The notes beneath the pieces are model-generated. The model was not told where the DNA came from. It worked only from the letters and a program-made list of their open reading frames with translations, and did no database searches. A DNA stretch of 64,000 nucleotides from Dehalococcoidia bacterium. Its GTDB lineage: Bacteria; Chloroflexota; Dehalococcoidia; Lucifugimonadales; Australimonadaceae. The DNA lies in NCBI GenBank assembly GCA_965220225.1, contig OZ244813.1, positions 1,891,385 through 1,955,384 of the forward strand, read 5' to 3'. Numbering within the stretch: position 1 is the stretch's first letter; each line of letters starts with the position of its first letter. A program made the translations under genes and the position numbers. This document shows positions 26,254 through 44,376 of this stretch, one piece after another.

Positions 26254-27060
26254 TTGAGCAAGACCCGTGGAGCAAAGAGCTACTACGCCAAGGTTACCCT
26301 CGGAGCCATGGCTGGCTTCGCGGTGTTGGCAGTGGTCACCGGCGTGGTCTCCGCCCGTTCAGGGATTCCCGGTGTGGCGGCAGAAGCCTATCTGCGCCGC
26401 GGCATGATTCGCCTTGAGTCCGGCCGCGTGGAAGGGGCCTACGACGACTACTGCGAGGCGATCCGCATCGATGCGTCGCTGTCCGAGAAGCCCGAACTTC
26501 TCGGCGAGGCCTATGCGAAGCGAGGGCTCATCTTCATGCTCGCCGAGGACTACTCGCACGCGCTGGACGACTTCGCGGTTGCGCTGGAGCGGAACCCTGC
26601 CGATGCGGGCGTGCGCGGGCACATCTACGAGGAGGCCATCGAGCAGTTGGACGTCGCCATCGAACTGCAGCCCTCGGAGGTGGCGCACTACCGCAATCGC
26701 GGCGGGGCAAGGCTCGGAGCGGGCCAGTACCAGGAGGCGGTCAGCGACCTGACGACGGCGATCGAGATGGGACCGTCTGACGGATCGGCGTTCGCCAACA
26801 GGGCAAACGCGCGGAGACATCTGGGCGACCTCGATGGCGCGCTGGAGGACTACAACAGCGGGCTGGACATCGAACCCACCGATGCCGTGGCCTACGCTGG
26901 GCGCGCGATTGTGCTCAGGAGGCTCGGCAGAGATGACGAGTCGAGCCGTGACGTCCAACTCGCCGTCGAGAACGGCTATGACCGGGCCCTGTTGATGCAG
27001 GTGTTCGAAGAAGGAGACAAGGACAACGTGCAGTGGCTTGAGCGAAGCGAGGATGATTAA
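26254..27060 (+). CDS. membrane-anchored TPR-repeat protein
   Basis: TTG start. N-terminal TM helix (VTLGAMAGFAVLAVVTGVV) followed by about five 34-aa TPR-like units (..AYLRRGMIRLESGRVEGAYDDYCEAIRIDAS.. and others). Confidence 0.8.
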   Translation: MSKTRGAKSYYAKVTLGAMAGFAVLAVVTGVVSARSGIPGVAAEAYLRRGMIRLESGRVEGAYDDYCEAIRIDASLSEKPELLGEAYAKRGLIFMLAEDYSHALDDFAVALERNPADAGVRGHIYEEAIEQLDVAIELQPSEVAHYRNRGGARLGAGQYQEAVSDLTTAIEMGPSDGSAFANRANARRHLGDLDGALEDYNSGLDIEPTDAVAYAGRAIVLRRLGRDDESSRDVQLAVENGYDRALLMQVFEEGDKDNVQWLERSEDD

Positions 27061-27147
27061 CAGGCGAGTGATCGACATCGAGGCCGCTGACGCAGGTAGA
27101 GAGAACGGGCCGGAGGATCGCCGGAGGGCATCACCGACCTAGCCAGG

Positions 27148-28092
27148 TCAGCAAGCCTCACGCACCGGCCCAACAGCAGCATCGTAGCCAGCCACGCCCA
27201 CGCTGAACTCAACAGCACCGCCGCCCGCGGAGTGATCGCGGAGCGCGAACTCGAAGACCTGAGCGCCAGCATCGAGACTCGCGAAGATATCGTCACGCTG
27301 ACGCGCCGGCGCGAACGCCAGACCACCAACGAGCGCCGAGTCCCACATCCGCCGAGGTCGCCAAGCACCATCTACCGCATATGCCACCGAGACTGTGCCC
27401 GGACTTCCACTTGGCGCATGCCAGGCGAGCGCCAACTCCATCGACAAACCATCGAGGAACAGAGTGGGCTCGCAGCGGACGGAGATTGAACCGCCGCCCG
27501 GTCCGCGATCGTCACCATGAGCAACGATATAGGGCGGATGATTATCAGCGAGCTCCCACGTCACCTGCAGCTCATCCCACGTCCGCCAATCACTGGACGG
27601 ATCCTCACATGCAATCACCGCGACACAGATCAGGAGCAGCAGGAATAGTAGCACCACCGTAGCCGGGACCAGGCCGCAGCCGCTAGCTCGCCGGGCGCGA
27701 GCTGCAGTGAAGTGCTCGTGGTAGATGGCGCGCACCGCCCGAGGTGCCCTCGTGCAACGAGTCTCCCTTGTAAAGACCTGCTGCGGAATGGGAGGCGAGG
27801 GTATGCTGCCATCGGTAGGTAACACTCGCTTGTAACGCCTCCGAAGTTCCTCGTCGGACTGGATGCCCTTGCGCATGTTGCAGCTGGTGCAGAGCAGTTG
27901 TAAGTTATCGACGTCGTCACTGCCACCTCGACTAACGGGGTGCTTGTGGTCAATCTCCAAGTAGTCGATACGATGGGCGCGGCCGCAATAAGCGCACCGT
28001 CCTTTCTGATTCTGGAAAAGCCCAGTCTTCACACCGCGAGGAATAACCCCTCGGCGCCTGCCCGCATTGTTGCGCTTACGACCCCAGCGCAT
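27148..28092 (-). CDS. HNH endonuclease fused in frame to a lipoprotein-like signal and a ~150-aa uncharacterised C-terminal domain
   Basis: N-terminus CAYCGRAHRIDYLEIDHKHPVSRGGSDDVDNLQLLCTSCNMRKG (HNH). Mid-protein ARARRASGCGLVPATVVLLFLLLLICVAVIAC|EDPSS looks like a signal peptide plus lipobox. An in-frame GTG at 27735 could start a separate 195-aa lipoprotein. Confidence 0.8.
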   Translation of the reverse strand: MRWGRKRNNAGRRRGVIPRGVKTGLFQNQKGRCAYCGRAHRIDYLEIDHKHPVSRGGSDDVDNLQLLCTSCNMRKGIQSDEELRRRYKRVLPTDGSIPSPPIPQQVFTRETRCTRAPRAVRAIYHEHFTAARARRASGCGLVPATVVLLFLLLLICVAVIACEDPSSDWRTWDELQVTWELADNHPPYIVAHGDDRGPGGGSISVRCEPTLFLDGLSMELALAWHAPSGSPGTVSVAYAVDGAWRPRRMWDSALVGGLAFAPARQRDDIFASLDAGAQVFEFALRDHSAGGGAVEFSVGVAGYDAAVGPVREAC

Positions 28093-28151
28093 AACTCATC
28101 CTCACTGCACCGCAAAAAACCACCGTTCCTAAAGTCCATCACACGCGGCGT

Positions 28152-28337
28152 TCATCGCCTCCCACCAAAATCCCGACCCAACTGCCAACGATACGCCCGA
28201 CAGTACACAACCGCTAGGACCACCTCGACTGCGAAGCGGATAGCGATCGAGATCGCAGGAGCAGAGAGTAGCATGACCGCGTCGACCACCGCAAATGTTG
28301 CTGTGATCAGACAGAATAGCAGCCAGACGTACCTCAC
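28152..28337 (-). CDS. small membrane protein (61 aa)
   Basis: GTG start overlapping the stop of the upstream mini-gene (GTGA). Two hydrophobic helices. Confidence 0.5.
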   Translation of the reverse strand: MRYVWLLFCLITATFAVVDAVMLLSAPAISIAIRFAVEVVLAVVYCRAYRWQLGRDFGGRR

Positions 28338-28441
28338 TTCCCCGGCCTGAACGAATAAAGAACAGTATCCATCTCTTCAAACGCGAACAACAAAATTGGG
28401 AATGGACGCCCGATGAGTAGCAGCAGGAGAACCCACTTCAT
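28334..28441 (-). CDS. mini membrane protein (35 aa)
   Basis: ATG 28441 preceded by AGGAGGG at 6 nt. MKWVLLLLLIGRPFPILLFAFEEMDTVLYSFRPGK. Confidence 0.45.
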   Translation of the reverse strand: MKWVLLLLLIGRPFPILLFAFEEMDTVLYSFRPGK

Positions 28442-28690
28442 GAGGAACCCTCCTGTCGCATGGGCCGAAGGCTTTGCAGTGACGCTCCGTGTACCATGTG
28501 AACAACAGGAGGGCGCGGGGCCTTCCTGTCCCATGCTCGGGGGTCACATCTGTCTCCATGTACATCGAGCGTCACTGCGGCGGGGAGACTACAGCTGGAT
28601 GCGTGCAGCTGCAACCAGTAGGCGAGGCAGCAGCCCATTGAACTATAGTACACTTGCCAAGAGGGACCACCGCTCGGGAGGAACTGAAAG

Positions 28691-28903
28691 ATGACCACGA
28701 GGCATATCGAGAACCGGCTGGCTGAGATAGACAACCTGCTGGCAGATGCGATTCGTGACAGCGCAGAGCGGCATCACGAGATAGCCACTGCCACCGGATT
28801 GCTTGCCACGATCACCGAACGGCACAACGCCCATCGGCAGCAACTCGCTGCCATCCAAGAGGCAGTCCAAGCACTCCGCGAGGCTATCCGCGAACCCGCC
28901 TAG
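28691..28903 (+). CDS. small coiled-coil protein (70 aa), hypothetical
   Basis: GGAGG RBS. Alpha-helical, heptad-like sequence. Ends 5 nt before the transposase stop. Confidence 0.55.
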   Translation: MTTRHIENRLAEIDNLLADAIRDSAERHHEIATATGLLATITERHNAHRQQLAAIQEAVQALREAIREPA

Positions 28904-29810
28904 GCCGTTTACGCTACCAGATTCCTGTAGGTGAGGTGTTCCGTGTTCACGATGCGCCGGAGCGTGTCTGTGAAGATGTGCGCGTTGTCGCGGTTGCTGT
29001 AGCACCACCCCAGTTCCTCCAGACAGCGGTCAAGGTGCTTCTCGCTCACCTTGTTGAACGCGCCGATGATGCCGCGTTTGAAGAGCGACCACACGCCTTC
29101 GATGGTGTTCGTGTGCACGTCTCCGACCACCCATTCCTCCATGCGGTGGTTTACCGTCTCGTGGCGCGTGTTGTGGTCTGCGATGCCGAGGTAGGACGCG
29201 AACTCGTCTGTGTGGAGAGCCTCAGCCTCATCTTTGACCGTCTCGCGGATGAACTCATGCAGCGTCCTGCGCTTGATGTTCGGGATGCGCTTGAGCCGTA
29301 TCACGCCCCCGCGCTGTATCGCCCCGGCTACCCACGTCTTGTTGCTCTTGTAGGCGCGTCCCTTGCCCTTCGTCTTGCCGCCTACGAGCGTCTCGTCGAC
29401 TTCGACGACTCCGAGCAGCGTAGGCCCCTCGAACGGGTCGTTGCCCATCGCCTCGCGGATGCGATGGCAGAGATACCAGGCTGTGCGATATGCAACGCCC
29501 AGCGTCCGCTTCAGTTGGAGGGCGGAGACTCCCTTCTTGGACTCGCACATGAGGTAGACGGCGGCGAACCATTTGCGGAGCGGCAGGTGGGAGTCGTGCA
29601 TAATAGTCCGGTCTGTGACGGAGAACTGGTAGTGGCAGGCAGCGCAGTGAGACTGCCCACGTCCGCTCATTGCGGCTACGCTCTCGGAACCGCAGCGGAG
29701 ACACGTTACGCCGTCCGGCCAGCGCAGCCGCTCAAGCAACCAGCGACACTGTGCATCGGTGTTATATTCGTCAAAGAGGGTTAGGAGGTTGGTCGTGGCT
29801 TACGCCCCAT
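28904..29810 (-). mobile_element. IS1595-family insertion sequence, boundaries approximate
   Basis: Defined only by the transposase gene. I could not find convincing terminal inverted repeats. Confidence 0.5.
28909..29739 (-). CDS. IS1595-family (ISXO2-like) DDE transposase
   Basis: Zn-ribbon N-terminus LERLRWPDGVTCLRCGS...HCAACHYQFSVT, then ..SALQLKRTLGVAYRTAWYLCHRIREAMG and the DDE region. Conserved sequence continues upstream of the annotated TTG (see findings). Confidence 0.85.
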   Translation of the reverse strand: MLERLRWPDGVTCLRCGSESVAAMSGRGQSHCAACHYQFSVTDRTIMHDSHLPLRKWFAAVYLMCESKKGVSALQLKRTLGVAYRTAWYLCHRIREAMGNDPFEGPTLLGVVEVDETLVGGKTKGKGRAYKSNKTWVAGAIQRGGVIRLKRIPNIKRRTLHEFIRETVKDEAEALHTDEFASYLGIADHNTRHETVNHRMEEWVVGDVHTNTIEGVWSLFKRGIIGAFNKVSEKHLDRCLEELGWCYSNRDNAHIFTDTLRRIVNTEHLTYRNLVA

Positions 29811-29988
29811 CGGATGATTCGTTGCCCGATGACATCCTCAGTCGGCTAGATTCCGAGGTTGCGGAGATCGTGTTCGGCCCGTCTGTGAAAGCGGAACTTG
29901 ACCCGACTGCCAGCGGCCGCAGGGACACGGCCGCAACGTCGACGTCTTCACCTAGGCCAGGAGCGAGACCCTCCGCGGCAGCTGGCCG

Positions 29989-30240
29989 TTGACGCTGGCC
30001 GAGGACGGCCCGACGTCGCCGGCATGGGAGGACGAGGTCCGGCGCTACGCCCTTGAGCTGAGCCCGGAGGCCCTGCTGCCGGCATCGGAGGTACGGAGCA
30101 TCGCGCGATCTGCAGCGCGGTACGCGAATCGCCCGGTGGCCTCCTCATCGGGACCGAGCACTTGCTCATCCGCATCATGCGAACCGTGGAGAGTGGAACA
30201 GCAGGCGCACTGTAGGGAGTTCGCGTCTCGCTCGATATGA
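29989..30240 (+). pseudogene. fragment resembling the C-terminal PriCT-type domain of a primase/replicase
   Basis: ..WEDEVRRYALELSPEALLPASEVRSIARSAARYANR.. resembles the P-L-p-x-x-E-V-r-x-I-a-x-S-v-a-r-Y motif of PriCT domains. No upstream catalytic part. It abuts the IS1595. Confidence 0.4.
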
Positions 30241-30360
30241 TTCGTACCGAGTTGGGCCGTACGCCCTTGTAGCCAAGCGTTCAAGAAGCCTCAATAGCAG
30301 ATAGGCCAACCGGGTAGCTTCGATAATGCGGTCACGGAAGGCCCGACGTGAAGGGTGCCC

Positions 30361-32841
30361 CTATTCCACATCCTGTTGCCGCTCGTGGCGGTGGTATATC
30401 TCCTCGATCGCCACGTCGAGTTCGGCCCACTGGCGCTCGGTCGCCGAGCGCAGCCGCATGTTCTGGAACGCGCCCCAGACCGTCATGGCGGGCGGGACGA
30501 GCAGGACGGAGAAGAGCAGGGAGTACGCGATGGTGATGGCAGCCGTGATGCCGAACTGCTGCATCGCGGCCAGCGGCGAGAACGCCATCACCCCGATGCC
30601 GAGCGCCGTCGTCAGCGCAGAGCCCAGCAGCGCAGAGCCGGTGATCGAGAGCGTCCGTACCGCCGCGCGCTCCGGGTTGCGGAGGCGCGTGAACTCCTCG
30701 CGGTAGCGATGGATCATGTGGATGGTGTAGTCCACCCCGATGCCTATGGAGAGCGCCGTGATGATGGACGTGGTGATGGTGTACGGGATGCCCAGCAGCG
30801 CCATCGTGCCGAGCACCGAGATGAGGACGAGCACCGTCGGCACCACGGCTATGACCGCCAGCGCGGGCTGGCGCACCGTCAGCCAGAAGAAGAGCGTGAG
30901 GACTACCAGGGCCGCCGCGATGGTCGTGCCGATCGACTCCGTCTGCCGGTCCCTGATGGTGTCCGTGACCACGAACGAGATGATGCTGTCCGAGGTCGCC
31001 GTGAGGGCATCGTCGTCGCCGGCCCAGACCGCCTCGACGTCCTCCTGCAACCGCTTCGACGCGCTTGGGTCGCCGGTGGAAGCCGGGAACTGGAGCAGTA
31101 TCGTATCGACGCCGGCATGATCGTTGACCAGGCTGTGTCTCAGGGCAGGGTCTCTCGCTTCGATCTCGTCGATGAGCTCCTGCATCAGCGCCCCGTCGAG
31201 GCGTACGCCCGCGGTGGCCTGCCGAAAGAGCGCTTCGAGCCGCGGGTCGTACTTGTCGCCGGGCTGTCCGCTGTCGTGGGTCCAGTCCTCGATGAGCAAC
31301 TCGTACGATATCTGGACCGGCCCCGCTGCCGCCGCCGGGCGGGTCCCCTCGTCCTGGAAGGCGTCCCTGAACTCGTGCAGGTTGAGGAGCGTGCGGGTCT
31401 CCGTGGCCTCCGCCCGAAGGAGCACGCTGGTGTTCTCCGTCGAGCCGCCGACGGACCTGTCGAGCGTGCCCAGGTCCTCCAGCACGGCGCCGCCCCTGGG
31501 CAGGAGGTCCCTGATGCTGAACTCCGACTCAAGGTCCCTGGCCGCGAACCCCAGCGCGAGCGTTACCACGAGCACGGCGATGATGTAGGGCGCGGGTCTG
31601 CGGGTGACCTGCCTGCCCAGCAGCTCCGCCAGCCGGTCGATGCCGGGCAGCGCCTGCGAGATCGGGCGGGGCGGCTGCAGCCTGCCGCGCGCCTCGCGCC
31701 GGCGGTCGATGATCGTCCTGCCCGCAGGGATCAGCGTCAGCATCACGATGAGGCTTAACCCCACGCCCAGCCCGCCGACGATGCCGAAGTCGCCGACTAT
31801 CTCGACCGGGGAGAAGAGGCCCACCAGCAGGCTGACGATCGTCGTCGCGGCTGCCAGCATCAGCGGGACGATGACGTTGCGCAGTCCCACCCGCGCGGCG
31901 CTTGCAACGGCCTCGCCGGCAACGCGCTGCTCCCGGTAGTGCGAGACGGCCTGGATCGCGTAGTCCACCGTCAGACCGATCACGATGATGGGCACCATCG
32001 CCGTGAGGGTGTTCGGGGCGCCGACCAGCCCCAGTCCTCCCGGTCCGAGCCAGCCCTCTATCCCCACGATCCACATCATCGCGATGAAGAGCCCCAGCAG
32101 GGTGAGCAGCAGGTCCGAGATCGAACGCATGAAGAGCACGATCAGCCCCGCGATGAGCAGCAGCGCCAGCCCGATCAGCGGCCCCATCCCCTGGGTACCC
32201 TTCTTGTAGTCGTCCTCGATGACGACGAACGAGATGCTGCTCACGCGCAGCGGGCCGTCGTCCCCGATCGCCAGTTCGTTGATCCTCCGCTCGGCGTCGA
32301 CGACGCGCTCGTCGCCCGTGTCGTGCAGGCGGATGCTCCCCACTGCGACGGGCGTGCCGTCCGTGTCTGTCCCGGTCAGCACGGCGAGCGTCTCCCCGAT
32401 GCCGGGGATGTTCCGGGCAGCGTCGATCTGCTCCTGTGTGACGCCTTCCAGGCTCGCCGCCTGGAGCCCGGCCTTGACGAGCAGCGAGGGTGCGAAGAAC
32501 GGGGCGGTCGGCGCCAGTATCCCCGTCACGTCCGGGTCACCGGCGATACGGGCGATGAGGGCGTCCATCTGGGCGAGCCCGCCGGGCGTGAGCGCCTCGC
32601 CACGGAAGAGGAGCGTCACCACTCTGACCTCGCCGGAGTCGCCGAAGAGCTCGTCGATCTCGGCCATCGCCATTGCGACGTCGCTGTCCCGGGGAAGCGT
32701 GCCCTCGGTGTCCAGCGGCGGCTCGCGCAGGTTCGACCCCATGGCCATCAGGACGGTAACGATGAGGAGAACGAGCAGCGTGAGCCACGGGCGTACCGTG
32801 ACCAGCCAGCTCAGCCATCCGAGTATGTTATGCATGGCCAC
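30361..32841 (-). CDS. MMPL/RND-superfamily membrane exporter (two 6-TM bundles with large periplasmic loops)
   Basis: 826 aa. Duplicated architecture, each half having one TM, a ~170-250-aa loop, then 5 TM. Segments such as TVDYAIQAVSHYRE / GVDYTIHMIHRYRE are typical of the MMPL/HpnN-type group. Confidence 0.85.
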   Translation of the reverse strand: MAMHNILGWLSWLVTVRPWLTLLVLLIVTVLMAMGSNLREPPLDTEGTLPRDSDVAMAMAEIDELFGDSGEVRVVTLLFRGEALTPGGLAQMDALIARIAGDPDVTGILAPTAPFFAPSLLVKAGLQAASLEGVTQEQIDAARNIPGIGETLAVLTGTDTDGTPVAVGSIRLHDTGDERVVDAERRINELAIGDDGPLRVSSISFVVIEDDYKKGTQGMGPLIGLALLLIAGLIVLFMRSISDLLLTLLGLFIAMMWIVGIEGWLGPGGLGLVGAPNTLTAMVPIIVIGLTVDYAIQAVSHYREQRVAGEAVASAARVGLRNVIVPLMLAAATTIVSLLVGLFSPVEIVGDFGIVGGLGVGLSLIVMLTLIPAGRTIIDRRREARGRLQPPRPISQALPGIDRLAELLGRQVTRRPAPYIIAVLVVTLALGFAARDLESEFSIRDLLPRGGAVLEDLGTLDRSVGGSTENTSVLLRAEATETRTLLNLHEFRDAFQDEGTRPAAAAGPVQISYELLIEDWTHDSGQPGDKYDPRLEALFRQATAGVRLDGALMQELIDEIEARDPALRHSLVNDHAGVDTILLQFPASTGDPSASKRLQEDVEAVWAGDDDALTATSDSIISFVVTDTIRDRQTESIGTTIAAALVVLTLFFWLTVRQPALAVIAVVPTVLVLISVLGTMALLGIPYTITTSIITALSIGIGVDYTIHMIHRYREEFTRLRNPERAAVRTLSITGSALLGSALTTALGIGVMAFSPLAAMQQFGITAAITIAYSLLFSVLLVPPAMTVWGAFQNMRLRSATERQWAELDVAIEEIYHRHERQQDVE

Positions 32842-33377
32842 GCCGCATCTTCAGAGCCTCGCACCTGTGCACTCGCACCTGCACTCATCGAGACGTGCGT
32901 GGGCGCGGGGGCATTCTACAGGGCAGAGCCTTCGAACGTCTCTCTTGGGTCACACGACCGACAATCGTCAGAAATGTCAGCAGGCATGCACAGAATGACC
33001 ATAGGAGCAGTTGTCCGCACACCCAGCGGTCACTCCTCTTATTCTCCCCCTGATGAGGAAGTGCACGCAGAAACAGGACTAGTCTCCCGTAGGCCGCTTC
33101 GCGGCAGCGGAAGGGGAGGCCGAGTCCCTGCTGGCGGTGGCGCGAGGGCCGAGGTGCACCCATCACGCCAGTGACCGGTAATCGTGCTACCGAGGGTTAG
33201 GTTTTACGGGCCATGCTAACCGGTCCGATGCGGCAGCGCCTGAAGCATCGGGCCAAGGCCTCGTCTAACCGTTCAAGCACAGTTCGACAGTTTGTTCAGA
33301 GCATCCTTAGTTTAAGCACAGGAAGTCTGCACGAGGGTAGAATCAGGGCGATACAACTGCGGTGAGGCTCATACTAT

Positions 33378-34133
33378 ATGGGAGTTATCAAGCGGTTTCC
33401 GTGGCAGGCACTACTGGCCATCGCAGTCGCTGCATTGGCGACCACGATGCTCGCGTGTAATGACGACACGGAGCCTGTGCTGCTTGCCACCGAGGGCGAC
33501 TACCCTCCCTTCAACTTCATCAACGGCGACGGCGAGATCGACGGACTCGAGCGCGAGCTTGGAGACGAGCTCTGCCGCCGTGCCGAGCTTAGGTGCGAGT
33601 GGGTACTGAACGACTGGGCGGACATGATCCCTGATTTGGTGGCAGGGGAGTTCGACGCAATCATGGCCGGGATGAGCATTACTGACAAACGAGACATGAC
33701 CATCGACTTCACCGAACCGTACTACCCTCCCACTCCGTCCGTCTACCTCGCGCTGGAGGGATCGGGGGACGAAGCAATCGAAGGTCGCCTTGGGGCCTAT
33801 GCCAACACCATCTACTCGGACTACTTCACGGAGCAGAACATCGCCTACATGGAGTTCAGCGACGAGGACGACCGATTGGCGGCGCTGCTGGACGGCGATA
33901 TCGACGCGATGCTAGTGGATCATGCCTACGCCACGGACAAGCTCACTGAGTACGAGCGACGGCTGAGCGTCGTCGGCCCCTCTGTGCTGTTGGACCGGGG
34001 TATAGGCATAGGCGTGCGCAACAACAACGAACTGCTGGCAAGGCTGAACTCGGCCCTCGCGTCCATGAAATCTGACGATACATTGAACAATCTCATCCGC
34101 AAGTGGGTAGGCGAGGACGCCTCGACTTTCTAG
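33378..34133 (+). CDS. family-3 (polar amino acid type) ABC substrate-binding lipoprotein
   Basis: Signal peptide plus lipobox (ATTMLAC). LLATEGDYPPFNFINGDGEIDGLE...DAIMAGMSITDKR...DFTEPYY motifs. Confidence 0.9.
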   Translation: MGVIKRFPWQALLAIAVAALATTMLACNDDTEPVLLATEGDYPPFNFINGDGEIDGLERELGDELCRRAELRCEWVLNDWADMIPDLVAGEFDAIMAGMSITDKRDMTIDFTEPYYPPTPSVYLALEGSGDEAIEGRLGAYANTIYSDYFTEQNIAYMEFSDEDDRLAALLDGDIDAMLVDHAYATDKLTEYERRLSVVGPSVLLDRGIGIGVRNNNELLARLNSALASMKSDDTLNNLIRKWVGEDASTF

Positions 34134-34483
34134 CCAGTGCTAAAAGCTCTTCGCCTTCACGACTAGCGCACGCCCGCAGATGCGGCCACGGCTTGAAGAA
34201 TTCCGCTTCACGTTGGACACAGACAAGAAAGTGATGGTCGGACGCGCCGAGTTGGAGCATGGCTGCGTTGAGGACATCAAGCTCATTGAGTACCATTGGC
34301 AGCCTACATGGAGTTGGTGGCAGCGTGTGCGCAGGGGGCTGGCATTGGGGAATTCTCTCCGTCGCGGTTTGAGATTCCCGTCGAGCACAGGACCATTAGG
34401 GTCATGCTGACGCCTGACGACATCCGCTACGGCGGGGGGCGCTACCTGCAGTTCCGAGGAGTGAAGAACGACTGAGGACAGCC

Positions 34484-34921
34484 ATGACGATGAAGGCGGT
34501 GCTAACATTGCGGGGGCAGGTCACACGCAGCCAGTTCTGGACGGCAGGTGCTTGGTTGATCTTCGTCTGGGCCGTGTTGTACCTGGGCTTGTTGCTCATG
34601 GGTCTGGCAGGAGGATTCCTCGCTGCGATCGTCGTCTTCGGATGGCTCGGCTATACGCTGTTCGTCCTCTACGCTTGGACTGCGCTCGTGGTGGGCAGGC
34701 TGCGTCACCTGGGGGCAAGCCTGTGGTGGGCGGCACTCTGGCCACTAACCGGGCCGGTGTTCTGGTTGGTCGTCGGAGTGCTGCCTGTCCGCCACGCGGA
34801 GGCCACAAGGGCATCTCGCTCGCAGAGTGGTCCTCTACGTGCATTCATCCTAATGGCGGTCTGCAGCGTGGCACTGGCGGTGTCGGTGGTCATTCTAGAC
34901 AGGGGGTGGCTAGGACGATGA
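34484..34921 (+). CDS. DUF805-family inner membrane protein
   Basis: RGQVTRSQFW near the N-terminus and VGRLRHLGASLWWAAL later, the two signature segments of DUF805. 4 TM. Confidence 0.75.
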   Translation: MTMKAVLTLRGQVTRSQFWTAGAWLIFVWAVLYLGLLLMGLAGGFLAAIVVFGWLGYTLFVLYAWTALVVGRLRHLGASLWWAALWPLTGPVFWLVVGVLPVRHAEATRASRSQSGPLRAFILMAVCSVALAVSVVILDRGWLGR

Positions 34922-35461
34922 TGGGAGGCTACCCGATTTCAAACGGCAACATGGCTCTATCCCAAAGGAGGTCAGGGAGGGCGCGCGGCCCTTGGAGTAA
35001 CCGAGCGGCAGGCGACGCCCCCGGCTCATACCGCTCGGCACGCCACAGCGACCGTGTCTATCGCACCGGCGAGGCCGCCGGTCACCGAGGACACCAGTGC
35101 AACGGGGGTAGACAGTAGACCCTCCACAACCACTAGGAGCACGTCAGCGGGGCCGCGCAACTCATCGGAAAGCCCCGCCACTACTGCAGTGTGGGCTGCG
35201 CCGCAGTTCGTGGTCGCCCGCATCGCCCTCCACGTCCACCAGTCCTTACGCCGACAGCGGTTCCGCATCGATGGCCACGGTCTGCCGCAGGGCAGTGTTC
35301 AGGCGGACGGAAGATGGTGGCCAGCCCACGGTGAACCGGTCGCACAAGCGAGACAGGGACGCGTCCGAATGGCTCCCCGACCTGAACGAATGCTGGTTCG
35401 CCAACCGCGTGGTCGAAGTGCGGCAGCAGTACGGCCTCACCGTCGACCGGCGCGAGCGTGA

Positions 35462-35716
35462 CGTCCTCGAGAGCATCCTGTCGAGCTGCAGGTCGACCGC
35501 CATGGTGGTGACCCGAGGCGCACGCCCGACACCGACCCGACTCCATCAACGGGCGGGAGCGGGGGCGTCGACGCTCTCCGGCTGTACGACAGCAACGGCA
35601 ACGGACGCATCACCTGCGCAGAGGCGCGTGAACACGGCATCGCTCCCGTTCACAGGGGACATCCTGCGTACCCCTACATGGACGACAGGGACGGCGATGG
35701 CGTCGTCTGCGAGTGA
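35462..35716 (+). pseudogene. C-terminal Excalibur calcium-binding domain, detached from its upstream part by a frame change
   Basis: ..LRLYDSNGNGRITCAEAREHGIAPVHRGHPAYPYMDDRDGDGVVCE* is a textbook Excalibur motif (..C.eA...G.aPv..g.PgY...mDrDgDGvaCE). This frame has no start codon. A protein-like stretch (EWLPDLNECWFANRVVEVRQQYGL..) sits upstream in another frame. Confidence 0.6.
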
Positions 35717-35748
35717 ACGGCACGTCTGAGCACAAACGGAGGGTACCC

Positions 35749-36189
35749 ATGTCGCACGTTCCGGTAGGTGGGAGGATTCCTAGGCACTGGCTCATCAAAA
35801 TGCAGGTCTCGTACAACCCAAAGCAGCCTGAGTCGGATGCATACGCAAGGTTCTGGCTGTACATCGATGGAATGAGAGTGGGGGCGTTCCTCGACGCGGG
35901 CGGAACCATGGGTGACGTGCGGCACAACATCGGCCATGGGTTTCTGTGCGTATACGAGCCAGGGACGTTACCCGTGCCGCACGCTCCGGTAGGCGGAAAG
36001 ATCCCTCGGCACTGGCTCATCAAAATGCAGGTCTCGCACAACCCGAAGCAGCCTGGGAAGAAGGCATACGCAAGATTCCGGCTGTACCTCGATGGGATGA
36101 CCGTGGGGGCGTTCCTCGACGCGGGGGGCACCATGAGCGATGTGCGACACAACATCGGCCACGGGTACCTGCGTGTACGAGAGCCGTAG
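35749..36189 (+). CDS. protein made of two tandem copies of an uncharacterised ~73-aa domain
   Basis: GGAGGG RBS, ATG 35749. The halves are MSHVPVGGRIPRHWLIKMQVSYNPKQPESDAYARFWLYIDGMRVGAFLDAGGTMGDVRHNIGHGFLCVYEPG and PHAPVGGKIPRHWLIKMQVSHNPKQPGKKAYARFRLYLDGMTVGAFLDAGGTMSDVRHNIGHGYLRVREP. Confidence 0.65.
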   Translation: MSHVPVGGRIPRHWLIKMQVSYNPKQPESDAYARFWLYIDGMRVGAFLDAGGTMGDVRHNIGHGFLCVYEPGTLPVPHAPVGGKIPRHWLIKMQVSHNPKQPGKKAYARFRLYLDGMTVGAFLDAGGTMSDVRHNIGHGYLRVREP

Positions 36190-36205
36190 AACGGCTGCTG
36201 CGAGG

Positions 36206-36463
36206 ATGGCTGCCTTCGCGCTGGTGCTCATGTGCATGGCACTTGTGACCTTCTGGATGGCAGCACGCGACGGAGCGAGCATGATCGTGCGGGGCTGGCT
36301 CCTGTTGGTGTCCGGTCTCTTCTAGGGCACGACCGTGGGGTTCGCGGCCAAGGCCGTCAGAGATGAGGTTCAGAAGGCACGTACCAGACGCGAGGCGCGG
36401 CTTCGGCAGGAACGGGAGTGGCGCAAGGGCTTGACCTCGGATGTGCGGGCTGCTATCCACTAG
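36206..36463 (+). pseudogene. small 2-TM protein interrupted by an in-frame TAG inside the second helix
   Basis: MAAFALVLMCMALVTFWMAARDGASMIVRGWLLLVSGLF*GTTVGFAAKAVRDEVQKARTRREARLRQEREWRKGLTSDVRAAIH*. The TAG is at 36323-36325. The C-terminal 22 aa have a paralog at 55651-55717 (minus). Confidence 0.45.
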
Positions 36464-36582
36464 CCATTGCACCCGGCAGTGGGGACGTGCAACTGCCGAG
36501 GGGACACGGCGGCCACGCGGTTTCTCACGTCACCACTGGCCACCCCGCTGCCACTTCATCTGCACCCCATAGGAGAACGATG
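36397..36582 (+). repeat. copy A of a ~190-nt repeated module (gene 3' end + conserved intergenic element + RBS)
   Basis: Aligns with the reverse complement of 55531-55717. Core 36445-36516: GCGGGCTGCTATCCACTAGCCATTGCACCCGGCAGTGGGGACGTGCAACTGCCGAGGGGACACGGCGGCCAC. Confidence 0.8.
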
Positions 36583-36720
36583 ACGGAACGGAAAGCCGAG
36601 ATGCAGGCCGTCCTCGCGGAAATGCAGGCGATGAAGGCCATACTGGCGGAGTTGGAGGCGATTCGCCTGCTCAACGAACGGATACTGAGTGAGTTGCAGC
36701 GCATCGGAGCGGGGCGGTAG
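36580..36720 (+). CDS. 46-aa coiled-coil peptide
   Basis: AGGAG RBS. MTERKAEMQAVLAEMQAMKAILAELEAIRLLNERILSELQRIGAGR. Confidence 0.5.
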   Translation: MTERKAEMQAVLAEMQAMKAILAELEAIRLLNERILSELQRIGAGR

Positions 36721-36733
36721 GCGGAGGGGAACC

Positions 36734-36829
36734 TTGGAAGCAGTACTCCTGCTCGCAGCGACACTGGGCTTCATCGGCATCGGGCTGATAGCCGCAGGGT
36801 ACTGTATCCACACACGCAGACGGAGATAG
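36734..36829 (+). CDS. possible 31-aa single-TM peptide
   Basis: TTG start with GGAGGGG upstream. EAVLLLAATLGFIGIGLIAAGYCIHTRRRR. Confidence 0.3.
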   Translation: MEAVLLLAATLGFIGIGLIAAGYCIHTRRRR

Positions 36830-36879
36830 CCCGTGCATCGCCGCGCATCGTTAACTACCGCAAGGAGGTCATAGTCACC

Positions 36880-36984
36880 ATGGTCGAGGTATTCGTAGTC
36901 TCGTTCGCATTCGCAATAGCCCTCCTCGTAGCATGCTTACTGCCTTCAGGTGCTGGCGGGGCAGGCCAGCGCAGCCGGAGGTAG
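36880..36984 (+). CDS. possible 34-aa single-TM peptide
   Basis: AAGGAGG upstream. MVEVFVVSFAFAIALLVACLLPSGAGGAGQRSRR. Confidence 0.35.
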   Translation: MVEVFVVSFAFAIALLVACLLPSGAGGAGQRSRR

Positions 36985-36987
36985 CCC

Positions 36988-37219
36988 ATGGCAGCAGAAC
37001 TCACCATCACGTCTGCCGTGGTCAAGGACACGCAGGTCAGCCTCAGCGTAAGGCAGCCAGTCCACCATGGGAGACCCTTTGGCGGGGATTGAGTTGGCGA
37101 TTCAGGCCGGTGAATCCAACCGATGCTTCATCAAGCTTAGCCCTGACGACGCCCTGCTGCTGGCCGCAACGCTGAAGGCGGCATCGCAGTTGAATTACAG
37201 CCCGACTCCGACTCCATGA
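36988..37219 (+). pseudogene. small protein gene with a +1 frameshift in a G4 run
   Basis: MAAELTITSAVVKDTQVSLSVRQPVHHGRPFGGD* (TGA at 37090). Removing one G at 37084-37087 gives ..GRPFGGIELAIQAGESNRCFIKLSPDDALLLAATLKAASQLNYSPTPTP*. The total length of 232 nt is 3n+1. Confidence 0.4.
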
Positions 37220-37243
37220 GCGGAGCAGCAGAGCAGGGAGAGA

Positions 37244-37474
37244 ATGAGCGATCCAGTGTTCATTACGGCATCGGCCTTGTTCGCTATGGGGCTAGTGATG
37301 ACCGGCGTCGGAGCCTACAGACTTGGCGATGAGGGCATGGACCATCTCTTCTCCGATTCGGAATGGTGGCTCAACCCCATCATCTGGGTCGCTGCTGGCC
37401 TGTTCTTGTCGGCAGGGGTCTTCTTCTTCGCAGCCTTTGTGTTTGCCCCCGACTGCTCCTGCCCATCTCCCTGA
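37244..37474 (+). CDS. small 2-TM membrane protein (76 aa)
   Basis: AGGGAGAGA upstream of the ATG. Helices FITASALFAMGLVMTGVGAY and IIWVAAGLFLSAGVFFFAAFVF. Confidence 0.55.
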   Translation: MSDPVFITASALFAMGLVMTGVGAYRLGDEGMDHLFSDSEWWLNPIIWVAAGLFLSAGVFFFAAFVFAPDCSCPSP

Positions 37475-37605
37475 ATGTCCTGAGCAGCAGCGGTTGATGG
37501 CAGTGCTTGACACCACTCCCACATCCGTGGGGAATTACACCTACTTTTGGGTGTGATTCCCCATCCGTGGACAGTGGGGGCGGTCAAGGTGTGCCCCGGG
37601 GGCTG

Positions 37606-37615
37606 CCCCCCCCCC
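37606..37615. repeat. C10 homopolymer inside a G5/Cn hairpin
   Basis: GTGCCCCGGGGGCTG-CCCCCCCCCC-GAGGCAC. Confidence 0.9.
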
Positions 37616-38069
37616 GAGGCACTTGACTCACAAGACCGCGTGGAGCACACCAATGTTGCAGTCCTGTTTCGTCATCGATTCAGAGACCGACTGCTTGTCG
37701 CTCGTACGCGACCTGCGTACAGGCAGTTGGCCGAGCGTCCCCGCTCCGGCACGGGGCAGGCGGGACAGCGCAGGCCCGCACCGCTGGCGCAGTCCTGCTT
37801 CGGTCGCAGCGCATCTGGCGAATTCATTCCGTTATGGGATGCGGCGGTCACGCGTTCCGAGTCCATCAGGTTTTTTGTCGAGACTACGGAAACGCTAGTC
37901 TTCGACGGTGGAGGCATCATCACCCGGTGCGAGACTATCTCCGTGCCGATAGCACCCGGCCCCCGCCCTGTGGAACCGGAGGCAGCCCCCACGGCCATAC
38001 CAGCAGCACCGCATCGCTCTCTGATTCCTTCTCTCAACTGATTACCCTCCGCCTCCTTTCGGAACGGAA

Positions 38070-38336
38070 ATGGGCCTTTGGGAACGGACAGGGGAGTTGG
38101 GAGCAAAGCCCATCGGCTACGTAGAGCGGGTCGGCGACGGGGAAGCGGGCGTGCTGACTACCGGTGAGGGTGAGACGATCCTGGCCATCCGGCGCAGGTT
38201 GGGCGCGGCGGCGGAAGCGCTGGGTAGGAGCCTGGATGTCCGCCGCGCAGGGAACGCGGTCTACTTCTGGGTGCAAGGGGGCCGTCGACGCGGGAGGCCC
38301 CGCAAGACTGTCCCGACACACCAGTCCCCCTCGTAG
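38070..38336 (+). CDS. small protein with a C-terminal AT-hook-like motif (88 aa)
   Basis: ..LAIRRRLGAAAEALGRSLDVRRAGNAVYFWVQGGRRRGRPRKTV.. The RGRP core is flanked by basic residues. A decayed paralog lies at 40623-40822. Confidence 0.5.
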   Translation: MGLWERTGELGAKPIGYVERVGDGEAGVLTTGEGETILAIRRRLGAAAEALGRSLDVRRAGNAVYFWVQGGRRRGRPRKTVPTHQSPS

Positions 38337-38520
38337 CGCGCACCCGGGGCCTCTGGGTTATGATGGGTGTCAGGGTGAGCGCCAATGATGCATTCTTCGG
38401 CGTTAGACATCGGCGGCACGAAAGCGCTCGCGCTCGCCGCCCGCCGGACAGGACGACGCTCGCGCCGGTCGTTACTGAGACACCCTTATGGGAATCGCGT
38501 AGCCCCCCCTCTGCAGCGTG

Positions 38521-39957
38521 CTAGTTGACGACGAGTTTGTCGACGCCACTCAGCTTGAGCGCCGCGTCCCGGATCTCGTCGGTGGTGTTCCGGACCTGTT
38601 CGACGATACCGAGGATGTCCTCCGCCCTGCCGTACCCCAACGAGTCGGCGTACCCGGCGATGGCGACCTGTTTCTTGAACTGAGCGTCTTCCATTATCTG
38701 GTCGAACGCCGACTGCCAGTACCGCTTCACGTCGTCTGGCACGCCTGGGGGAAGGAAGAAGACACGCGATATCTCGGCCACGAGCAGATTCAGCTCGAGC
38801 GCTTCGGCCTGCGCCGCGTTGAATGTGAAGCCGGGGAGTTCGCGGTATGAGGGCAGCGGGCCGGTGTGCCCGAGTTCCGCAAGCCATCTGTCGTTGTACG
38901 GCTTCACCTCGTAGAAGACCGGGATGAGGCGCCCGTCCTCTATCCACTCGGGGTAGAGGCGCCCCGCCGTGCCCGGGCTGCACCGGTTCGTGCCGTCCAC
39001 CTCGCCTTGGTCGAACGCCGTCATTATCCCGGTCGTGCCGCCGTAGCCGTAGACCATCTTGAATGGGCCGCCGTTCGCAATCATGAACTCAATGGCGGGC
39101 TCGTTGCCTGGCCCTGCGGAGCCCACCTTGATCGTGAGGTTGTTATCCAGCACCTCCTGCCAGGAGGAGGCGAAGTTCCTGTCCAGGCAGAAGCCGTCCT
39201 CGTTGATGGAGAACGTGGGGGAGCCGAGGATGTGGATGGCGTCGATGTCGAACCCGGTGACGTCGCCCACGTACAACTGCCGCTGGAACCAGCGCGAGTG
39301 CGTCGGGCCGATGGTGTAGCCGTCCGGGTTTGAGTCCACTACCGCCCGCAGGCCACGCAACTGTGCGTCGCCGGGGATGTTCTGCACGATGAAGCGCGTG
39401 CTCTCAGGGAAGTAACGCTCGGCTGCCTCGGCAACCAGCCTGCTGAAGGTGTCGTAACCGCCGCCGGGGCTCGCACCGACGACGATCCTGATCGTCTTGC
39501 GGCCGAAGTACTCCTCCGCGTCGAAAACGGTAGGCATAGGTGTAGCTGTCGGCGTTGGTGTGGACGTGGGTGTAGGCGTCAGCGTAGGTGTAGCGGTCGA
39601 TGTGGGCGTAGGCGTGGGTGTAGCTGCCGGCGTGGGCGTGGACGTGGGTGTGGGCGTCAGCGTAGGCGTAGCGGTCGATGTAGGCGAGGGTGTAGCTGCC
39701 GGCATGGGCGTGGGTGTGGGTGCAGGCGTCAGCGTAGGCGTAGCGGTCGATGTAGGCGTGGGTGTAGCTGCCGGCATGGGCGTGGGTGTGGGTGCAGGCG
39801 TCAGCGTAGGCGTAGCGGTCGATGTAGGCGTGGGTGTAGCTGCCAGCATGTGCGTGGGTGTTGCTGGAGAGCAAGCAGCGAACAGTAGGAGAGTCAGAGC
39901 GAAGAGGAGGATGCCTAAGGTCGGTAAAGGCCATGTCTTGGAATTCGCCATCTTCAC
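38521..39957 (-). CDS. tripartite tricarboxylate transporter substrate-binding protein (TctC/Bug family) lipoprotein with a ~125-aa P/T-rich linker
   Basis: Signal peptide and lipobox (LLLFAAC), a long [23 protein letters not shown]-type repeat, then [21 protein letters not shown]..., typical of Bug/TctC proteins. Confidence 0.85.
39547..39860. repeat. 72-bp tandem repeat (about 4 copies, the last two to three nearly exact) encoding the TctC P/T linker
   Basis: The unit starting TGTAGCTGCCGGCATGGGCGTGGG recurs at 39691, 39763 and 39835. Confidence 0.85.
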
Positions 39958-44043: not shown

Positions 44044-44376
44044 ATGCTTCAATCGGGAGGCGAACGCGAATCGCTATACCACGAGCAGGGGGGGAGTTGC
44101 ATGTATTGCGGCTGTTCACTCCCCTCGGACGGATTCGAGATTGACCATAAGGTGCCGACTTCACGTGGCGGCGGCGATGAACGCGAGAACTTGCAGATGC
44201 TCTGTCCAGCCTGTAACCAACGCAAGGGGAACATGACCGATGAGGAGCACCGGAGGCGATATCGCCTTGGATTGTCCATTGGCGCGCAGCCGCCGGTATG
44301 GCCGATTCCCCAAACCTACTTCGGCAATATCGACCGTGAGTTAGAGAGGCGGGAGTCGTACCGCGGCATCTCTTGA
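44044..44376 (+). CDS. HNH endonuclease (110 aa), paralog of the N-terminal part of 27148-28092
   Basis: AAGGAGAAGG RBS. CMYCGCSLPSDGFEIDHKVPTSRGGGDERENLQMLCPACNQRKGNMTDEEHRRRY..PIPQTYF parallels CAYCGRAHRIDYLEIDHKHPVSRGGSDDVDNLQLLCTSCNMRKGIQSDEELRRRY..PIPQQVF. Confidence 0.85.
   Translation: MLQSGGERESLYHEQGGSCMYCGCSLPSDGFEIDHKVPTSRGGGDERENLQMLCPACNQRKGNMTDEEHRRRYRLGLSIGAQPPVWPIPQTYFGNIDRELERRESYRGIS

Follow-up and report, generated by a model that had tools for sequence, protein, structure and literature searches.

EndA of Streptococcus pneumoniae and NucA of Bacillus subtilis are membrane-held nucleases of the beta-beta-alpha-metal type that serve in DNA uptake, with an N-terminal anchor and the catalytic domain outside. 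In bitopic regulators of the ToxR/CadC type, a cytoplasmic domain directed at nucleic acids is joined by one helix to an outer sensor domain that contains a disulfide. In this study, we analyzed a gene whose predicted layout is like that of the latter. It lies in a 64,000-nucleotide (nt) stretch of a Dehalococcoidia bacterium genome (contig OZ244813.1, positions 1,891,385 to 1,955,384), hereafter called the window. The gene is an open reading frame (ORF) of 314 amino acids (aa) plus a stop, at 27148..28092 on the minus strand in the ORF list. An earlier inspection made from the letters and the ORF list, hereafter the sequence-only reading, had described it as an HNH endonuclease fused in frame to a lipoprotein-type signal and to a domain that could not be assigned.

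We found that the 314-aa ORF is real, and that it is a chimera of two unrelated families. An identical or a 97%-identical ORF is present in independent sponge metagenomes, and four independent metagenome runs of sponges, made for another study, contain the locus. An assembly artefact was therefore ruled out, the same ORF being recovered at 97-98.5% identity in independent sponge metagenome assemblies. The data reported below make it probable that this is a young, lineage-specific in-frame chimera, tolerated as an accident of a decaying genomic island rich in insertion sequences (IS), rather than a designed sensor-nuclease.

Two families in one reading frame

The ORF opens, as the sequence-only reading had proposed, with a complete HNH motif. 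The Pfam HNH family (PF01844) matches residues 33-76 with an E-value of 1.1e-14 and 54.7 bits, against a gathering cut-off of 21.4. The zinc ligands C33, C36, C68 and C71, which form two CxxC pairs, and the catalytic residues D48-H49, N63 and N72 are all intact, and each of these positions is an invariant column in a 20-sequence alignment of the family. By score and by residues this half is thus a member of PF01844, and it is predicted to be a nuclease. The zinc-finger HNH core as a whole (residues 1-99, 27796..28092, minus strand) was modelled by AlphaFold2 (AF2) with a per-residue confidence (pLDDT) of 75-96. The frame then passes through a basic stretch, ARARRAS, a 22-residue hydrophobic segment ending in VIAC, and 152 further residues. 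It runs on through ARARRASGCGLVPATVVLLFLLLLICVAVIAC and then EDPSS, and the 152-aa domain that it enters carries Cys207 and Cys314, so that the earlier description of a frame continuing by way of a hydrophobic segment into a Cys-bounded domain of about 150 aa holds. By our own arithmetic from a G+C content of 63%, the chance of a 152-codon open frame is about 1.4%. Random read-through as the origin of the extension was ruled out by the homologues of the C-terminal domain (8, best E-value 1.2e-11).

Judged by their sequence, residues 1-162 belong to an apparently undescribed family of HNH nucleases of 150-190 aa, found in about 45 Dehalococcoidia species. Searching 5.8 billion protein clusters gave 18 relatives of 175-248 aa, with a coverage of the query of only 40-52% in each case. 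When one genome was scanned per species, 48 loci were recovered, 44 of them in metagenome-assembled genomes of Dehalococcoidia or Chloroflexota, with no match past about residue 167. HNH, linker and helix occur together in 19 cluster representatives and in the 48 species loci. The family layout consists of an MRW..RR N-terminus, the zinc-finger HNH, a linker of the form PIPQ..F..ET..TRAP..VR.IY..RF, a basic run, usually GCG, and a helix of 20-22 residues. The 314-aa ORF has the linker, the GCG motif and the hydrophobic helix. Its family-specific linker (residues 100-139, 27676..27795, minus strand) ends in a basic helix, predicted over residues 118-139, and in the GCG motif, and its key columns are kept in 40-42 of 43 relatives. 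The hydrophobic helix (residues 140-162, 27607..27675, minus strand; predicted helix 141-161) is the tail anchor of the family, here an internal signal-anchor that ends in the lipobox-like VIAC.

The full ORFs of 43 Dehalococcoidia copies were read for the helix and the C-terminal end. A strongly hydrophobic helix follows the conserved linker in 41 copies, and 34 of the 43 end at most 8 residues after it. The longest tails reach about 40 residues and look like unrelated read-through. Column by column, 41 relatives are still aligned at residue 159, 21 at residue 161 and 8 at residue 163, so that the natural end of the family coincides with the start of the extra domain. The 314-aa ORF is therefore not a true tail-anchored protein, as 152 residues follow its helix instead of a few. 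AF2 run with the family alignment gave a confident nuclease core and a continuous helix 118-161, with a pLDDT of 91-95 over the hydrophobic part; in the full-length model, the alignment depth was zero over residues 163-314. The sequence-only reading had seen in the mid-protein segment a textbook lipoprotein signal. This part of it has to be given up: in the alignment, the supposed n- and h-regions are the conserved C-terminal anchor of HNH proteins whose members stop at residues 160-162, and the segment is thus, by this comparison, the HNH family's own tail anchor and not a lipoprotein signal. Basic residues before the helix and almost nothing after it mark proteins that are tail-anchored and have a cytoplasmic N-terminal domain. 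By the positive-inside rule, the nuclease of the family should therefore lie inside the cell.

The family is solitary, without a conserved partner gene. Its genomic contexts vary among species: some members lie beside the rpsL operon, others in an island with SSB, RadC and ubiquitin-like genes, others beside recombinases and transposases. Among 45 related loci searched for a conserved neighbour, no ORF was common to more than 7. A phage-borne family was also considered, and dropped, as viral contigs of IMG/VR match the HNH core only and never the linker or the anchor. Matches in NCBIfam, PADLOC and PHROG were limited to the HNH module and far under the family cut-offs, no model in Pfam or NCBIfam spans linker and anchor, and a literature search for tail-anchored or membrane-anchored HNH nucleases found no description.

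Some relatives depart from the common layout. The most divergent ones (L046, L048 and L049, 40-42% identity) apparently have two C-terminal hydrophobic helices, forming a hairpin, and an acidic tail. Another member (L014:3001-3585) runs past the helix as LALTYC-TPHPPATPPPLAPTRPTG, that is, a Cys and then a Pro/Thr-rich tail of 37 residues. This tail recalls a lipoprotein linker, and may be either read-through or another partial fusion. Within the window, a 110-aa HNH paralogue (44044..44376, plus strand) lacks the linker helix and the anchor. It is 45% identical to the 314-aa ORF across residues 20-123 (E-value 5e-27) and, just as the sequence-only reading noted, it stops soon after PIPQ..F. 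It was ruled out as a truncated tail-anchored copy, as no hydrophobic helix lies downstream in any frame.

The second half of the chimera, residues 163-314 (27151..27606, minus strand), is an unnamed extracytoplasmic beta-sandwich domain with the Cys pair C207/C314. An exhaustive phmmer search against 1.84 billion representatives gave 8 matches, the best with an E-value of 1.2e-11. Six lie in proteins 98-298 aa long: five of them span essentially the whole domain (1.2e-11 to 3e-5), while P0026, a 98-aa fragment, covers its C-terminal half. The other two matches, in proteins of 1,900-2,000 aa, were over short repeated stretches and were set aside as probably low-complexity. A profile search added two further relatives. 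The alignment has 16 invariant columns, the C-terminal Cys among them. Motifs held in common are W.TW, an IDC-like motif with its Cys, Y-A-[IV]-D-G-x-W-R, F-A-P..Q..DI and, again, the C-terminal Cys. Over their full length, residues 163-314 are 32-38% identical to the nearest relatives and keep both the invariant columns and the Cys pair. Lack of any conservation in this region would have spoken against a domain; the 8 homologues and the retained Cys pair answer that concern.

AF2 predicted for the domain a beta-sandwich with two helices (pLDDT 77, predicted TM-score 0.76), which gives a fold to what the sequence-only reading had left without assignment. No family was found in Pfam, PHROGs or NCBIfam. 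A profile search of the PDB matched only Pro/Thr linkers, Foldseek with the model against the PDB gave nothing under an E-value of 0.05, and the viral models searched with Foldseek yielded nothing beyond weak matches, at TM-scores of about 0.5, to phage proteins that are uncharacterised. No relatives of the domain were found in a scan of JGI metagenomes, and no second copy was found within the window. In P0021 and P0025, a lipoprotein signal (LTIAC and VIVGC, respectively) is followed by a long Pro/Thr linker and then the domain, whereas P0024, P0027, P0035 and P0036 have a short tail in the cytoplasm, followed by a single helix, in some cases a linker, and the domain outside. In the chimera, the place of an export signal or signal-anchor before the domain is taken by the helix that the HNH tail anchor supplies. 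As this helix has basic residues on its N-terminal side and acidic ones on its C-terminal side, the domain is predicted to lie outside the cell, and the conserved Cys pair would fit a disulfide in an exported domain. From these comparisons, we consider the outer domain to be a real, separate, rare and unnamed family of exported proteins. The gene of one relative, P0024, belongs to a tight three-gene string (L054:182-1483), in which a gene for a 138-aa multi-helix membrane protein overlaps the start of P0024 by 4 nt and a 106-aa lipoprotein-like gene lies 5 nt downstream.

Alleles and selection

The whole query was covered by a single cluster among the 5.8 billion, and the fusion was seen in this one sponge-associated population alone. 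This cluster, at 90% identity, contains five proteins: two intact ones of 314 aa, two truncated ones of 262 aa, and one frameshifted. The intact ones are the window allele and P0031, which has 10 amino-acid differences and is encoded on a 90-kb contig (L059). The truncated ones, P0032 and P0034 (contigs L056-L058), are identical to the window allele through S235 and unrelated beyond. Their breakpoint corresponds to position 27389 of the window; unrelated sequence follows past residue 235, then a Ser/Thr kinase/ADP-ribosylglycohydrolase gene. This gene, with a product of 799 aa in which the kinase is fused to the ADP-ribosylglycohydrolase domain (L056:1719-4118), starts 45 nt downstream, and its sequence is not in the window. 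In the fifth allele (P0033, on L112), a 1-nt deletion in an AAA run at codon F107 (27772..27774, minus strand) shifts the frame after PIPQQV. The HNH part is thereby split from the helix and outer domain, which form a separate ORF called from GTG 27735. Residues 1-99 are identical across all five alleles.

The frameshifted allele bears on the proposal that one ORF gives two products. In this scenario, a full-length or soluble HNH protein would be made together with a precursor initiated at the in-frame GTG of Val120 (27733..27735, minus strand), with a leader of 43 residues serving as the lipoprotein signal; cleavage and lipidation would take place at Cys162. Only from this start can the outer domain be reached in the frameshifted allele, and the gene caller chose it as the start of a 195-aa ORF. 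A GAGGG lies 11 nt upstream of the GTG. Residues 159-162, V-I-A-C, correspond to the lipobox [LVI][ASTVI][GAS]C, although so short a motif could occur by chance at the end of a helix, and two relatives of the outer domain are typical lipoproteins (LTIAC and VIVGC). However, the GTG and the purine run sit inside the conserved motif TRAPREVRAIY (TRAPRAVRAIY here), and therefore give no independent evidence for a start site; among 42 relatives, which lack the downstream domain, 41 keep Val120. The helix aligns fully with the tail anchor of the family, in which no Cys is conserved at the helix end. The signal would not be N-terminal in the annotated ORF, where the Cys is at position 162, but only in a product started at Val120. 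Promoter scanning found no promoter-like site; Rfam, promoter and terminator scans from 26 kb to 30 kb in the window found nothing. The sole RNA hint, a 215-nt sponge metatranscriptome contig with 98% identity, corresponds to 27871-28085 and covers the HNH core only. On balance, we hold the production of two proteins from this ORF to be very improbable.

We next estimated selection by comparing the window with L059, which carries the 98.5%-identical allele. Non-synonymous and synonymous differences were counted, and their ratio expressed per site of each kind (pN/pS). In the HNH core the counts were 0:1 (pN/pS 0). They were 4:1 in the linker and helix (pN/pS 1.6), including L153P, and 5:2 in the outer domain (pN/pS 0.83). 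For comparison, they were 3:4 in the neighbouring tetratricopeptide repeat (TPR) gene (pN/pS 0.24), and 13:2 in the adjacent IS1595 transposase (pN/pS 1.95), which is frameshifted in the variant too. Past residue 100, some 9-10 non-synonymous against 3 synonymous differences have a probability of about 0.01 under a constraint like that of the TPR gene, in a rough binomial calculation on small counts. The pN/pS values, together with three broken alleles out of five, point to relaxed constraint on everything past the nuclease core, and only the HNH core appears to be maintained.

Origin of the fusion and its surroundings

In position, the junction matches both the natural stop of the HNH gene and the point where the mature domain of its partner begins. 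At this point, DPSSDW aligns with the DPTGDW that closes the Pro/Thr linker of the relatives, indicating that the partner's signal, and any linker before the DPSS residues, are missing. We searched for the outer domain in the 3-kb flanks of 53 HNH loci, and it was absent at all of them. Homologous loci with an HNH gene, a stop and a separate lipoprotein gene, which would have made the fusion a local mutation of neighbouring genes, were thus not seen. Absence of the domain at all 53 loci suggests that the event imported foreign sequence by deletion or recombination, and was not a simple stop loss. One deletion, or one illegitimate recombination, at this stop would suffice to join the HNH tail anchor to the mature part of an exported protein and to give the observed ORF. 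Lost in the process would be the HNH stop codon, the spacer and, from the partner, its start, its signal and any linker. The proposal of a stop-loss fusion to a downstream lipoprotein gene is thus retained in part: a local fusion to a gene for an exported protein agrees with the unique architecture and with the separate domain family, but neither the simple loss of a stop nor the lipoprotein signal is upheld. As both helices have the same orientation, with the cytoplasmic side first, the fused product is topologically valid. If made in full, it would cross the membrane once, the nuclease facing the cytoplasm and the sandwich lying outside.

An accident is favoured because the fusion is not conserved, is polymorphic, is broken in several strains and evolves almost neutrally past the nuclease core. 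Several points weigh against this conclusion. The selection estimates are built on just 14 substitutions. Two haplotypes about 1.5% apart both retain the 314-aa frame and all family-invariant positions in the outer domain. The broken alleles may be rare, three out of five being a count of cluster members and not a frequency. The topology, with basic residues before the helix, acidic ones after it and the domain on its usual side, is coherent in the way expected of a selected fusion. Finally, the nearest relatives of the outer domain share only 32-38% identity with it, so that the donor gene is unsampled and a young age of the fusion is presumed.

Some of these points could be turned into a case for function, the fusion being then a bitopic receptor-nuclease whose outer sandwich responds to a ligand, to damage of the envelope or to contact with phage, and regulates the HNH domain inside. 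In its favour, the charge distribution makes the in/out topology coherent, the outer domain keeps all invariant residues including the Cys pair, the frame is intact in two diverged haplotypes, and other members of the domain family likewise have a cytoplasmic tail, one helix and the domain outside. However, the architecture is confined to one population among the 5.8 billion protein clusters, three of the five alleles wreck the fusion while retaining the HNH core, pN/pS is about 0.8-1.6 past residue 100, and L153P, in one strain variant, places a proline in the middle of the helix. The single-pass protein of the sequence-only reading, with the nuclease inside and a sensor outside, is therefore coherent in its topology, but the population data do not favour it, and we judge a working receptor-nuclease unlikely. 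A broader version is that tail-anchored HNH proteins form a lineage-wide class of nucleases at the inner face of the membrane, attacking for instance incoming DNA, and that the intact fusions are a working receptor variant in which the sandwich gates or localises the nuclease. To this combination we would give only a small chance.

A tolerated accident thus remains the preferred explanation. The single gene is then a minor curiosity, which nevertheless shows how membrane helices of the same orientation let unrelated genes fuse into a topologically valid protein, here caught while decaying. More useful is that the analysis defines two families that had no name: tail-anchored HNH nucleases in Dehalococcoidia, and a Cys-paired exported sandwich with a confident fold model. 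Possible reasons for tethering a nuclease that looks non-specific include control of toxicity, surveillance of incoming DNA, and defence.

Two small hydrophobic ORFs precede the chimeric gene, as the sequence-only reading described: one of 35 aa (28334..28441, minus strand), with AGGAGG 7 nt before its ATG, and one of 61 aa with a GTG start (28152..28337, minus strand), overlapping the stop of the previous one by GTGA. Their presence and their strong ribosome-binding site are as reported. Their status as genes is unsupported, and their proposed role as partners of the nuclease did not survive comparison, which revealed neither conservation nor constraint (53 loci, strain differences). They could be real small membrane proteins, co-transcribed and working with the nuclease, for instance as an immunity, holin-like or toxin/antidote partner. 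This idea draws on the strong Shine-Dalgarno sequence, the GTGA overlap, the shared strand and the distance of 59 nt to the HNH start. Both ORFs are also open in the second haplotype (L059) and called by gene callers, and their third-position G+C is close to that of the HNH gene. On the other hand, no homologue of the 61-aa ORF turned up beyond the population in which it occurs, no family match was found for either ORF, nothing matches them near any of the 53 related HNH loci, and a hydrophobic ORF lies within 450 nt upstream in only 2 of 41 relatives. Haplotype differences are 7 non-synonymous to 2 synonymous, including V4P, M22K, L5S and L9R inside hydrophobic stretches: the 61-aa ORF has 4 non-synonymous and 0 synonymous differences between strains, M22K among them, and the strain variant of the 35-aa ORF carries L5S and L9R in its hydrophobic stretch. 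By our own count, substitutions reach about 3%, as in the linker-helix part of the chimera, against about 0.3% in the HNH core. In the other haplotype, indels just upstream alter the set of open frames. With so good a ribosome-binding site the two ORFs may be translated, but most likely they are not functional partner genes, and a real partnership with the nuclease seems to us quite unlikely.

Further from the fusion, L059 shares 26336-29698 with the window at 97% identity, a block that includes the TPR gene, the HNH fusion, the mini ORFs and an IS1595 remnant. In L059, this block adjoins sequence found at 35705-38584 of the window, so that about 6 kb (29699-35704) are strain-variable, present in one and absent from the other. 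The convergent TPR gene (26254-27060, plus strand) encodes 268 aa in the window and 365 aa in L059, and variant strains have in it a 27-nt in-frame insertion after 26623. The IS1595-family transposase gene (28909-29739, minus strand) has a 1-nt deletion at 28957 in variant strains, and in L059 it is called as two ORFs of 159 aa and 60 aa, consistent with an insertion sequence that is dead. A 70-aa ORF of coiled-coil appearance (28691-28903, plus strand), situated between IS1595 and the mini ORFs, is called as a gene in every related contig.

Comparison with described systems

With generic zinc-finger HNH proteins (PF01844; the modules of McrA, Cas9/IscB and Septu PtuB), the chimera has in common the beta-beta-alpha-metal core and the Cys4 zinc site, and the likeness is limited to the HNH module. 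Its scores with the IscB, Cas9 and retron HNH models are far under the curated cut-offs, and no RuvC domain, guide RNA, ATPase partner or methylase was found near the chimeric gene. To our knowledge, membrane anchoring is not a feature of HNH families of the McrA, Cas9/IscB or Septu PtuB type. The locus also differs from multi-gene defence systems with an HNH effector (Septu PtuAB, Zorya type II, retron HNH, CBASS Cap5) in having no conserved partner, and its PADLOC matches concern the HNH module only.

The closest relatives of the two halves are found in their own families. Residues 1-162 are 55-73% identical to tail-anchored Dehalococcoidia HNH members, and have all motifs through the helix in common with them. 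Past the helix, these members usually have 0-8 residues, at most about 40, of unrelated appearance, whereas the chimera has a folded domain of 152 residues. In the exported relatives of the sandwich, the domain stands behind a lipoprotein signal and a Pro/Thr linker, or behind a 45-residue cytoplasmic tail and a helix, but never behind an enzyme. The resemblance to ToxR/CadC-type regulators is one of layout only: the cytoplasmic part of the chimera is a predicted nuclease and not a winged-helix DNA binder, and there is no relationship of sequence or fold. Compared with EndA and NucA, finally, the nuclease of the chimera has its anchor on the C-terminal side, and it is predicted to be cytoplasmic.

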